Shown one piece after another: positions 54,690-61,685 of a stretch of 64,000 nt of DNA. The notes beneath the pieces were generated by a model. That model saw nothing but the letters and a program-made list of their open reading frames with translations. It did not search any database and had not been told where the DNA came from. The translations under genes were made by a program, and so were the position numbers. Every line of letters begins with the position of its first letter. Within the stretch, counting starts at the first letter, position 1. Source of the DNA: Planctomycetota bacterium (GTDB taxonomy: Bacteria; Planctomycetota; Planctomycetia; Gemmatales; HRBIN36). The stretch lies in assembly GCA_014584395.1 (NCBI GenBank), contig JACTMY010000018.1:30342-94341 (forward strand), given 5' to 3'.

Positions 54690-55181
54690 ATGGCCATGCC
54701 CGCGGTATATGAAGGACATGGGCTCCGTTTTCAATACCCCGAAACCTGGGACCTCGAGGACCAAGAAACGCCCGATGGCTGGTCCTTGTCGGTCACCAGT
54801 GAGAACACCGCCTACTTGCAAATGGTGGGGCAACCCATGCCCGAAATCGACATGGATGAGGCCATCTCCGCGGAATTGGGCAGCCATCCCTCGGAGGATC
54901 CGCTTCTACTCGGCATGCTCGTCGCGGCCATTGAAGCCTTGCGCGAGGATTATCCCGAACTTGAAACCGAGGCCGTTGAAGAGGCCAAGATTGGCGGCAT
55001 GGTCTCTCTGATGCAGCAAGTTCATTTCATCAGCTTCGATTTATCGGTAACCTGCACCATGTATTGCGTGCGCACGCCAACGCAGATCGTTCTGATTCTC
55101 TGCCAAGCCAGCGATTTGGAAGAAGACGAAGCGGAACCACAGTTTGTTTCAATGATGAAGTCCTTGCGATGGCAAAAGTAG
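54690..55181 (+). CDS. Small acidic cytoplasmic protein, unknown function
   Basis: AGGGAGA immediately upstream of ATG 54690, 163 aa, Asp/Glu-rich, no TM. Possibly chaperone/adaptor-like (speculative). Confidence 0.55.
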   Translation: MAMPAVYEGHGLRFQYPETWDLEDQETPDGWSLSVTSENTAYLQMVGQPMPEIDMDEAISAELGSHPSEDPLLLGMLVAAIEALREDYPELETEAVEEAKIGGMVSLMQQVHFISFDLSVTCTMYCVRTPTQIVLILCQASDLEEDEAEPQFVSMMKSLRWQK

Positions 55182-55474
55182 TCTTGGGCCTCCTACTCGT
55201 CACGACCGTTGCAACTGCATTTTTATGCCTTCCTGAACAGATGCGACTTACCCGACAAACGAATAAGTATTGAGACTCGTCAACAAAACAGGTATCATGG
55301 GAGTTTTAATGAGTGAGATTCCATCGCCCTTCGCGAGTTCTCTGAGACTCACGATACAGGCGAGTGTGCGCGTGGTTTAGATGGATATCCTCAGGATATC
55401 CTGATGCCTTCATTACTTTCGAAGTCATTTGTTTTGGTTCGCATCGAGCATCAGCCCAGCAGGGAGACATCGAC

Positions 55475-60800: not shown

Positions 60801-61685
60801 AACGGCCGGGGCAAGCCGCGTCCACCGGAACCCATCGTCTTCGAGGGCAACGCTCCTGCCAATCTAAGCAAGAATACATTTCTCAAAGCTTGCTTCGCCA
60901 TCCGGCCCACGCAGATGCCCAAGGAAGCGGCCGCCTGGTTGGGAGAACCCATCGCCATCAAGGATCCCACGGCAGCGCTCTTCCGCCGACAAAATGGCCG
61001 TCATTTGCTGATTTTGGGGCAGGACGCCGAGGAAACGCTTGGCGTCATGTGCAGTTCCTTGATCAGTTTGGCGGCGCAGCTTCCGGATCAAGCTCGACTA
61101 TATGCGTTGTCCGCCACCTGGGATGGAGATGAATTAGCCCCCTTCAAGCTGCTGTTTGATATGGCGCCGCAAGTTCACGAAATGCACGACCACCGTTCGC
61201 TCAGCGATTTCATGAAGTCCATGGGCGAGGAACTGCAGCGCCGCCAGCAAGCGCCGACCGAGGAGGACCCACCCGTTTTTGTGTTTATTCACGGCCTGCA
61301 ACGCTTGCGCGATCTGCGTCGGGCCGAGGACGACTTTGGCTTTTCTTCTCGAGACGCCGCCATGACGCCGGCGCAAATCCTCACGCATTTGGTACGCGAG
61401 GGAGCAGGTTTAGGGATTCATCTCGTGCTGTGCGTGGACGGCTTGGGCAGTCTGCTCCGAAGCATCGACCGGCAGACCTTGAGGGACATCGAATTGCGCG
61501 TGCTCTTCCAGATGAGTTCCGGCGATTCCAGCAATTTGATCGACACTCCCCTCGCCAGCCGATTGGGACTGCATCGAGCTTTATTCGCCAGCGAAGCGGA
61601 AGGTAAATTGGAGAAATTCCGCCCCTACGGCCCCCCCGCGAAGGATTGGATCGAACAGCTTCGCCGTCATTGGCCCCTTCGTTAA
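57807..61685 (+). CDS. Membrane FtsK/SpoIIIE-family ATPase with three tandem P-loop-like domains (EssC/EccC-like)
   Basis: Walker A GKTGSGKST (60102-60128), Walker B LLIVDEF (D-E at 60426-60431). Flanking degenerate FtsK-like domains: NLLLRTATPFDRQQA at about 59280-59330, and HLLILGQDAEETLG at about 61002-61043. Two TM helices (about 58451-58592) sit between coiled-coil regions. ATG 57807 with an AAAGGA SD; the TTG at 57732 is less likely. Confidence 0.85.
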   Translation: MSELNLLEMERTLMRDLRSAAAERAAAETAMITIFKSRIQQTLDQWEATQKRLLEERQQEEEATRQNREDRLQNLRTSITQENEALQLAFAEAKENIESTYHQDKANTQKEYRETRWTTRMVYEANKNASKQQYIEATHKAESAVTRFQNIVNEVEIYLRRCRLPTWHAEVIPLPPLEGDEIPPEPLREMDEQLEIVESQWKKLQELPLPKIFRGYWFILVIIGLALAIIFPTIFITKDPLFGTTVGTAAAMFICLSLFFGLRATASSQAGRLCRPLVHAVAEGRALKDACIQQATRIHRRQVAGFQKQRQAELQQADAIYQPKLEELKKKRIQDLRRNSALYQPQLAALQARFEFEQHQIETEYKTRLLIAQETYDSELLMARTEFESSKADIERHQADAWRQMAFAWRAALAVVKERVDVIQREADRLFPSWESCARSYPQRDSIPSVLRIGKLILDFGQIPNGMPIDPGLKAESSLRFEIPALLPFPTGGNLLLRTATPFDRQQAIRSLQTLMLRYLTSVPPGKVKLTVIDPVGLGDNFAAFMHLADFDESLIAHRIWTEPAHIEQRLSDMTAHMESIIQKYLRNQYSSIEVYNNAAGEVAEPFRVLVIASFPVNFTSDAAHRLVSVISSGARCGVSAMVSVDTKQELPEGFHLGDIEPLCVNYSWKQDQPHWHDPDFADLPFVLDDPPDNELTTAIICQVGAAAKDAQRVEVPFQYIAPQDADWWRNDSGHGLHIPLGRVGATRRQAMQLGTGTAQHVLIAGKTGSGKSTLLHVLITSCALHYAPEQVELYLVDFKKGVEFKPYAIHALPHLRVVAIESEREFGLSVLQRLDEELKRRGDRFRQLSVQDIAACRVADPHTPYPRILLIVDEFQEFFTEDDRLGQEAALVLDRLVRQGRAFGIHVILGSQTIGGAYTLARSTIDQMAVRIALPCSEADGHLILSEGNAAARLLSRPGDAIYNDMSGLVEGNHPFQVAWLADDTREKMLIKLDELANGRGKPRPPEPIVFEGNAPANLSKNTFLKACFAIRPTQMPKEAAAWLGEPIAIKDPTAALFRRQNGRHLLILGQDAEETLGVMCSSLISLAAQLPDQARLYALSATWDGDELAPFKLLFDMAPQVHEMHDHRSLSDFMKSMGEELQRRQQAPTEEDPPVFVFIHGLQRLRDLRRAEDDFGFSSRDAAMTPAQILTHLVREGAGLGIHLVLCVDGLGSLLRSIDRQTLRDIELRVLFQMSSGDSSNLIDTPLASRLGLHRALFASEAEGKLEKFRPYGPPAKDWIEQLRRHWPLR

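Follow-up and report, generated by a model that had tools for sequence, protein, structure and literature searches.

Type VII secretion systems (T7SSs) are usually treated as systems of Actinomycetota and Bacillota. The only set of components common to all of them is a membrane-bound ATPase together with a WXG100 protein (PMC11217815; PMC10765036), and a 2024 classification into subtypes a to j covers Gram-positive bacteria only (PMC11217815). Solo WXG proteins next to a YueA-like ATPase with three FtsK/HerA domains, of which the middle one is active, were recorded in a footnote that names planctomycetes (Zhang et al. 2012, Table 1, footnote 6; PMC3482391). A passage of a 2023 review, citing Sutcliffe 2011 and Unnikrishnan 2017, describes the combination of WXG100 and FtsK/SpoIIIE proteins in Gram-negative bacteria as "not yet confirmed functionally" (PMC10765036). 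This type of system, planctomycetes included, has already been noted in the 2012 footnote and the 2011 and 2017 surveys, and it is not known to have been characterized, or tested for secretion in bacteria that have an outer membrane. Our literature searches found no paper dedicated to a planctomycete T7SS. Here, we describe a four-gene cassette of this type in a 64,000-nucleotide stretch of contig JACTMY010000018.1 from a Planctomycetota bacterium (GCA_014584395.1; referred to in full as the window). The locus was first picked out by a reading of the letters alone (the sequence-only reading), which took six co-directional genes for a compact type VII secretion-like module. That interpretation proved correct in kind for the most part; the finding is not as new as supposed, given the 2012 footnote, and secretion remains something that we infer.

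The conserved unit comprises four genes, not six, all on the forward strand. They encode, in order, a 90-amino-acid (aa) WXG100 protein of the HP0062 subtype (positions 56524 to 56796), a 177-aa helical hairpin protein (56990 to 57523), a 71-aa helical protein (57520 to 57735), and a 1292-aa membrane-anchored ATPase of the FtsK/SpoIIIE family, assigned by its search scores to the EssC/EccC (YueA-like) clade (57807 to 61685). The stop codon of the 177-aa gene overlaps the start codon of the 71-aa gene in an ATGA at 57520 to 57523, as read directly from the sequence, and this overlap points to translational coupling of the 71-aa gene to the 177-aa gene. A spacer of 71 nucleotides (nt) separates the stop codon of the 71-aa gene from the ATG of the ATPase gene at 57807. 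We rejected a longer ATPase open reading frame (ORF) beginning at TTG 57732 because every homologue begins at MSELN, the N terminus encoded from the ATG. The cassette is predicted to be a co-transcribed four-gene operon. The spacer between the 90-aa and 177-aa genes (56797 to 56989) is 193 nt long, compared with 10 to 100 nt in most other loci, and contains a run of seven T's at about 56912 to 56918; this run could be an attenuator that raises the dosage of the WXG100 protein, and our terminator scan did not call it.

To collect relatives, we used a pattern scan over one genome per GTDB species, which placed a relative of the ATPase in at least 422 planctomycete species genomes. A word-indexed search had returned 10 relatives, and the rare family that this number suggested was rejected as a sensitivity artifact. 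The best 80 of these at least 422 loci each come from a different species genome and belong to Planctomycetota, save for a few metagenome-assembled genomes (MAGs) labeled "uncultured bacterium," "bacterium," or Alcaligenaceae. Gemmatales, Isosphaeraceae, Pirellulales, Planctomycetales, Phycisphaerae, and Tepidisphaerales are all represented among them, and one of the loci lies in the complete genome of Singulisphaera sp. Ch08. Synteny was counted in the 67 loci with at least 1.6 kb of upstream sequence. The order 90-aa, 177-aa, 71-aa, ATPase is intact in 55 of the 67, and partial cassettes make up the rest (177-aa and 71-aa genes with the ATPase gene, 5/67; 71-aa gene only with the ATPase gene, 2/67; ATPase gene alone, 5/67). 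Because the same order occurs in 55 independent planctomycete loci, the recurring arrangement is far beyond chance. A 177-aa homologue lies upstream of the ATPase gene in 66 loci, and a 71-aa homologue is present in 70. The cassette flanks differ completely between lineages and consist of housekeeping genes that vary by locus; no further conserved neighbor was found among 83 loci, where the other recurring ORFs are all shadow ORFs that overlap the gene for the ATPase. The sequence-only reading had proposed to look for co-occurrence of the small genes and the ATPase gene in related genomes and to count its absence as evidence against itself; they co-occur across the phylum, so the reading stands on this point. 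Two loci (L027 and L085) have a transketolase gene and an ORF of about 320 aa ahead of the ATPase gene. The near-synteny of these two loci, of which L085 is labeled Planctomyces sp. SH-PL62, makes the "Kuenenia" label of L027 look doubtful.

In a neighbor-joining tree, 73 ATPases group by order or family, with the protein from the window inside Gemmatales; ATPases outside its immediate clade are about 40 to 48% identical to it. Because the tree follows taxonomy, inheritance of the cassette within Planctomycetota appears to have been mainly vertical. We found no mobile, patchy distribution within the phylum, considering this tree, the number of species genomes, and the base composition of the cassette, which is the same as that of the rest of the window and gives no island signal.

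The 90-aa protein is, from profile comparisons, a true member of the WXG100 family. It matches the Pfam WXG100 model (PF06013) with 38.1 bits against a gathering cutoff of 27.3, and all 52 of its homologues collected at an E value below 1e-3 match this model as well. Searched against the PDB, its family profile aligns over the full length of Helicobacter pylori HP0062 (3FX7/2GTS; E = 4e-12), followed by Bacillus anthracis EsxB (1e-8), Streptococcus agalactiae SAG1039, and Staphylococcus aureus EsxA (1e-3). The turn motif, TWRDQEHEKF, is present as the sequence-only reading had reported and contains W43-R44-D45; a literal W-x-G is not found at the turn, and W-R-D is invariant in the 52 sequences. 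HP0062, a WXG100 protein of solved structure, likewise has WRD in place of WXG and an adjoining FtsK/SpoIIIE gene, and it forms a four-helix-bundle homodimer (PMC3397514). Also invariant in the 90-aa family are E47, F51, K79, A80, Y86, and L87; the C terminus (...KAERIEEYL) is conserved, and there is no signal peptide. This is the most conserved of the four cassette proteins, with a mean column identity across the phylum of 68%; the 71-aa and 177-aa proteins reach 39% and 30%, respectively.

Search scores place the ATPase with EssC, EccC, and YukB and not with FtsK. It matches the Pfam FtsK_SpoIIIE model with 119 bits. The EssC/EccC-like affinity proposed by the sequence-only reading holds (E values of 1e-27 to 1e-29, against 5e-5 for FtsK): in NCBIfam, the values are 5.6e-29 for EssC, 9e-28 for EccCb, and 7.7e-27 for EccCa, compared with 4.7e-5 for FtsK, or about 100 bits compared with 21. 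Matches in the PDB rank in the same way (EccC 4NH0, 3e-33; EccC5 7NP7, 3e-28; YukB, 1.6e-22; FtsK, 1.5e-10; 118 versus 42 bits). The FtsK gamma domain PF09397 was not detected in this ATPase and is carried by the true FtsK matches of our search (P0016 to P0020).

The proposal of a membrane ATPase is also supported, by an EccC-like two-helix anchor, whereas the description of its P-loop domains as a tandem is not: there are three FtsK-like domains, and only one of them has both Walker A and Walker B motifs. The N-terminal part begins with a coiled-coil domain (residues ~27 to 166; 57885 to 58304), followed by two predicted transmembrane helices joined by the seven-residue loop TKDPLFG (residues 216 to 262; 58452 to 58592) and a second coiled-coil domain (residues ~302 to 438; 58710 to 59120). 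The transmembrane call is based on a mean Kyte-Doolittle value above 1.6 over 19 residues; this segment holds the only two sustained hydrophobic stretches of the protein, besides an isolated window at residue 1199, and is conserved in the alignment. The segments before and after the membrane hairpin align with each other in hhalign (96.3% probability, E = 1.5e-9), which suggests that the two coiled-coil domains are an internal duplication flanking the hairpin; both would be cytoplasmic. Neither shows similarity to the small cassette proteins. Across 273 cluster representatives, every copy of this N-terminal membrane module of 470 residues begins a protein of about 1300 aa, and its named carriers are planctomycetes.

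The three FtsK-like domains occupy residues ~470 to 735 (59214 to 60011), 736 to 1000 (60012 to 60806), and 1001 to 1292 (60807 to 61682), and only the middle one is predicted to be catalytic. Its Walker A motif, GKTGSGKS (60102 to 60125), and Walker B residues, D874-E875 (60426 to 60431), are strongly conserved: G766, T768, G769, S770, G771, K772, and S773 are invariant in 73 of 73 ATPases, as is the DEFQ motif formed by D874-E875, F876, and Q877, and position 767 is K in 64 homologues and R in 9. A set of three nucleotide-binding domains, each with Walker motifs, is not found here, as the Walker A lysine is missing from both flanking domains family-wide. The first domain has ...G-R-x-x-A at the Walker A position in 73 homologues, and G-Q-x-E-E-A replaces Walker A in the third; the degeneration of both is conserved. 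hhalign relates the first domain to the third (94.4%) and the third to the middle (96.7%, E = 3.5e-10), and a direct comparison of the first with the middle domain is not significant (0.9% probability). The best alignment of the active domain is with D1 of EccC and EccC5, so the dead domain that precedes it occupies the position of the EccC "DUF" domain. In EccC, D3 binds the tail of EsxB; by analogy, substrate docking is a candidate role of the third domain of the planctomycete ATPase.

For the 177-aa protein, an AlphaFold2 model based on a 62-sequence alignment (predicted local distance difference test score [pLDDT], 88.8) shows a long antiparallel helical hairpin, with a helix at residues 10 to 75, a turn at 77 to 82, helices at 86 to 135 and 137 to 158, and then a disordered tail rich in Pro, Ala, and Glu. 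In the window, this tail is about 20 residues long and carries no effector domain. The protein has no match in Pfam (LXG included) and no sequence match in the PDB, and Foldseek returned only generic hairpins for the model, none with an E value below 0.1, so that no family was assigned from the fold. A conserved ...LExY motif marks the C terminus of the family; beyond its invariant Tyr, a YxxxD/E export motif is not conserved. Most 177-aa homologues lack any effector domain. Some from Phycisphaerae carry a C-terminal Imm33-like domain (PF24719) with 32.7 to 34.9 bits against a cutoff of 27 (L047, 4046 to 5107; L060, 195 to 1175; P0117); in another (L070, 3933 to 5057), the match falls below the cutoff at 23.5 bits. 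P0120, a metagenomic homologue, ends in a DUF6782 putative metallopeptidase domain. We read the family as an N-terminal hairpin that is conserved and a C-terminal module that varies, and this combination in relatives would give the 177-aa slot the architecture of T7SS or polymorphic-toxin cargo. The Phycisphaerae homologues join an immunity-type (Imm33-like) domain to a cargo-like hairpin.

The 71-aa protein is probably a shortened, diverged relative of WXG100 proteins, to which its similarity is weak but consistent. Its FWNDQVKRQF motif is present as described by the sequence-only reading, with W21, W28, and D30 conserved. Of the two WXG100-like proteins in that reading, the 90-aa protein passes the Pfam gathering score, whereas the evidence for the 71-aa protein is thinner: hhalign aligns its family with the 90-aa family on the W-x-D motif (E = 2.9e-4, 40% probability), 8 of 66 members of its family have subthreshold WXG100 matches in Pfam, a clean 71-aa profile scores 23.7 bits against the WXG100 protein of a Caballeronia plasmid, and the profile reaches EsxA in the PDB only at an E value of 0.38. 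Iterated profiles of the 177-aa and 71-aa families matched the 90-aa protein strongly, which proved to be partly profile contamination. Because clean profiles give much weaker cross-matches, we call the 71-aa protein only "probably WXG-derived" and claim no WXG100 relationship for the 177-aa protein. The two-helix hairpin that had been proposed for the 71-aa protein is not established, as a single-sequence AlphaFold model shows one continuous helix (residues 3 to 70). A ubiquitin-like beta-grasp fold, as in EsaB/YukD, was not seen in this all-helical model either.

Relatives outside the phylum are found on plasmids of Caballeronia (Betaproteobacteria) and Helicobacter, which encode WXG100 proteins of the same subtype (family-profile scores of 81 and 56 bits) together with an ATPase that has the same three domains. 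On plasmid NZ_AP024820.1 of Helicobacter sp. NHP19-012 (3764 to 8166), the order is a WXG100-like protein of 89 aa with the turn TWGD, a 340-aa protein in which a helical N terminus is joined to a WHH/HNH nuclease, a SUKH (SMI1/KNR4) immunity gene, a 77-aa gene, and a soluble ATPase. The nuclease and SUKH genes look like toxin/immunity cargo at the position of the planctomycete 177-aa gene, and a WHH nuclease paired with SUKH in this slot is the signature expected of an exported polymorphic toxin. On plasmid pSBC2-5 of Caballeronia sp. SBC2 (3891 to 16541), the WXG100 and ATPase genes are embedded among VWA, DUF1887-CARF, VWA, PP2C phosphatase, Ser/Thr kinase, and AAA genes (a TerY-P-type triad).

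The best explanation of the cassette, and one that we hold at somewhat better than even confidence, is a minimal T7SS-like module for exporting proteins, with its anchor in the cytoplasmic membrane. The ATPase would probably assemble as a hexamer, like EccC and EssC, and its twelve transmembrane helices (two per protomer) would form or gate a pore, by analogy with EccC5. The middle P-loop domain alone would hydrolyze ATP, and the degenerate FtsK-like domains and duplicated coiled-coil domains would contribute to assembly, to regulation, and to the docking of substrates. The passengers or cofactors would be folded helical proteins without signal peptides: the 90-aa protein, expected to be a four-helix-bundle homodimer like HP0062, and the 177-aa hairpin, which would travel with its WXG-derived 71-aa partner in a complex suggested by the translational coupling of the two genes. 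We consider it more likely that the hairpin and the 71-aa protein are the substrate pair and that the 90-aa protein is an EsxA-like homodimer. The C-terminal motifs of the 90-aa (...EEYL) and 177-aa (...LExY) proteins are candidate signals for docking on a degenerate ATPase domain, by analogy with EsxB and EccC D3. Because no outer-membrane component is linked to the cassette, exported proteins would likely end up in the periplasm or on the outward-facing side of the inner membrane. A housekeeping envelope function is more likely than a mobile weapon, since inheritance is vertical phylum-wide, there is usually no toxin, and the WXG100 protein is the most conserved component. We offer a bolder form of this proposal only tentatively and think it will more probably fail than hold: that the cassette is an ancestral, vertically inherited, self-sufficient T7SS-type exporter of Planctomycetota, in which a hexameric single-motor ATPase with a twelve-helix channel would deliver folded WXG100 dimers and 177/71 complexes to the periplasm for housekeeping in an unusual envelope.

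Several features favor an export module. The WXG100 membership of the 90-aa protein is solid, and the predicted partner is an EssC/EccC-like ATPase with a two-helix anchor and three FtsK-like domains. The gene order is kept amid unrelated flanks, the ATGA overlap suggests coupling, the 177-aa proteins carry variable modules, and the Helicobacter plasmid has an apparent toxin/immunity pair in the same slot. The vertical ATPase tree and the restriction of the N-terminal membrane module to the ~1300-aa architecture are consistent with the same proposal.

Other observations weigh against it. The ATPase scores far below the curated cutoffs of the T7SS families (100.4/778.4 bits for TIGR03928, 96.9/346.55 for TIGR03925, and 94.3/509.15 for TIGR03924). 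It has only one active P-loop domain, whereas domains D1 to D3 of EccC all bind nucleotide, and almost none of it would lie in the periplasm. The 71-aa protein is only weakly assigned to the WXG100 family. The ATPase gene occurs without the upstream small genes in five loci (L027, L030, L035, L037, and L085). The WXG100 protein is more conserved than the ATPase (68% column identity, compared with about 40 to 48% identity to the ATPase of the window), a pattern as compatible with a subunit of the machine as with a substrate. No homologues of EccB/D/E, MycP, EssA/B, EsaA, or YukD were found by Pfam and NCBIfam searches of the 64-kb window and the locus flanks, as the sequence-only reading had noted for the cluster itself, and no outer-membrane conduit is linked to the ATPase in the locus neighborhoods. 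Both plasmid ATPases are soluble, with no hydrophobic segment and no N-terminal module, and their proximity to TerY-P, CARF, kinase, and phosphatase genes hints that the wider family may act inside the cell, in conflict or signaling. Finally, secretion has not been shown in any organism for Gram-negative systems of this kind (PMC10765036).

We regard as unlikely a nonsecretory alternative: an intracellular, membrane-tethered ATPase machine for conflict, defense, or stress signaling, with the helical proteins as regulatory or stalk-like subunits or as sensors. The soluble plasmid homologues among TerY-P triad (VWA, PP2C, and kinase), CARF, and AAA genes speak for such a machine, and in H. pylori islands WxG and FtsK proteins accompany DNA-processing modules (PMC4978471). 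The very strong conservation of the WXG100 protein and the lack of linked accessory membrane or outer-membrane parts would suit it too, and the 177-aa model resembles stalk hairpins of YscO and a V-ATPase stalk subunit (chain G), with no match significant. However, the planctomycete loci lack those conflict genes and have variable housekeeping genes in their flanks, PADLOC defense models gave generic P-loop matches only, conservation of the membrane hairpin is not easily explained unless the protein acts at the membrane, and the toxin and SUKH immunity pair of Helicobacter implies export.

That same pair, together with the existence of plasmid-borne copies, the extra C-terminal domains of some planctomycete 177-aa homologues, and the phrase "mobile versions of T7SS" in footnote 6 of Zhang et al. 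(PMC3482391), speaks for a second alternative, mobile T7SS-type delivery of toxins for interbacterial competition. We consider this reading improbable for the planctomycete cassette, in which the 177-aa tail is a short disordered stretch, no immunity gene follows the 177-aa gene, the base composition gives no island signal, and the ATPase tree tracks planctomycete taxonomy; moreover, the best 80 loci each come from a different species genome, and most homologues lack an effector domain. A third alternative, a DNA translocase or division protein of the FtsK/SpoIIIE type that is adapted to the FtsZ-less planctomycetes and regulated by the helical proteins, would account for vertical conservation across a phylum with unusual cell division and for an FtsK/SpoIIIE fold with a membrane anchor and long coiled coils, but it is very improbable given FtsK scores far weaker than those to EssC/EccC, no detected gamma domain, two dead motor domains out of three, and tight linkage to a WXG100 gene.

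The remainder of the window provides the context of the cassette. As the sequence-only reading had gathered from the neighboring genes, the host has an outer membrane: Porin_O_P, OEP/TolC, and AcrB are encoded in the window, and the source is a diderm planctomycete whose closest named relative is a Gemmatales MAG. Rfam gave no match, and promoter and terminator scans found nothing exceeding shuffled controls. All six ORFs of the module first proposed exist, co-directional, where they had been placed. The two upstream of the cassette encode a 163-aa protein (54690 to 55181, forward strand), to which family searches in Pfam and NCBIfam assigned no function, and a protein with multiple TPR matches in Pfam (55364 to 56440, forward strand); both recur only in two syntenic relatives that are 82% identical (L004 and L005), and the six-gene module was rejected for this reason. 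Farther upstream and in the opposite orientation (52774 to 54366, reverse strand) lies a gene for a 530-aa protein with several hydrophobic helices, a C-terminal region rich in Gly, Pro, and Arg, and no Pfam match, which is kept in the closest relatives only (529 aa in L004 and L005). Three further genes are seemingly unrelated to the cassette: one for a Ser/Thr kinase with many TPRs (13614 to 17114), one for a 1012-aa WD40 protein (26125 to 29163, reverse strand), and one for a 1171-aa SdrD_B/CarboxypepD_reg repeat protein (31178 to 34693).

These results describe a fixed, phylum-wide cassette of a WXG100 protein and an EssC-like ATPase in diderm bacteria, without other T7SS parts. Four aspects appear to be new: the membrane-anchored architecture, in which a coiled-coil domain is present twice; the constant set of four genes, with its 177-aa hairpin family and 71-aa partner; vertical inheritance throughout the phylum, in contradiction to the label "mobile" for Planctomycetota; and the interpretation of the 177-aa position as a cargo slot. 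If export is confirmed, the cassette would define a minimal functional core of type VII secretion, showing what an ATPase and a WXG100 protein do alone, and would be a new route to the planctomycete periplasm. It would also be the simplest known T7SS and the first functional type VII-like pathway in a phylum bearing an outer membrane (lipopolysaccharide-type diderms). If there is no export, the pair of WXG100 protein and EssC-like ATPase would have a nonsecretory ancestral role, and genome signatures of a "minimal T7SS" would have to be read differently. Either outcome is directly testable because genetically tractable planctomycetes exist.

Measured against the definition of a T7SS, the cassette has the two universal components and lacks a literal WXG motif, three nucleotide-binding domains, scores above the curated cutoffs, and, across the window and the locus flanks, the accessory components. 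With FtsK/SpoIIIE translocases it shares the P-loop motor fold and membrane anchoring; it differs from them in having no gamma domain, in a triplicated motor fold of which two copies are dead, and in a similarity weaker than that to EssC/EccC. With T7SSa (the ESX systems of Actinomycetota) it shares the best solved matches to its ATPase, EccC 4NH0 and EccC5 7NP7, an active domain that aligns on D1, and a degenerate domain before it, like the EccC DUF. Unlike T7SSa, it has no EccB/D/E, MycP, EspG, PE/PPE, or YxxxD/E motif, and it stays below the cutoffs of TIGR03924 and TIGR03925. The T7SSb of Bacillota (EssC, an EsxA homodimer, and LXG toxins) likewise has an ATPase with two transmembrane helices and three domains of P-loop fold and one conserved WXG100 protein, whose gene is the first of the cluster. 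Its elongated helical-hairpin substrates with variable C termini and small helical partners (PMC11217815; PMC10801868) also have a counterpart in the cassette, where the hairpin is a putative substrate. In contrast to T7SSb, the planctomycete ATPase has coiled coils in place of FHA domains and one active domain, the cassette has no EssA, EssB, EsaA, YukD, or LXG match in Pfam, and the host has an outer membrane. The closest likeness is to minimal systems of the HP0062/HP0066 type: the 90-aa protein is a full-length HP0062 homologue with a W-R-D turn, and in both cases the ATPase has three FtsK-like domains, of which the middle one alone is predicted to be active. Compared with these, the planctomycete ATPase has an extra N-terminal module of 470 residues that is missing from the two plasmid relatives examined, and the planctomycete system appears vertical rather than mobile, as a fixed four-gene set with a toxin-less hairpin protein.

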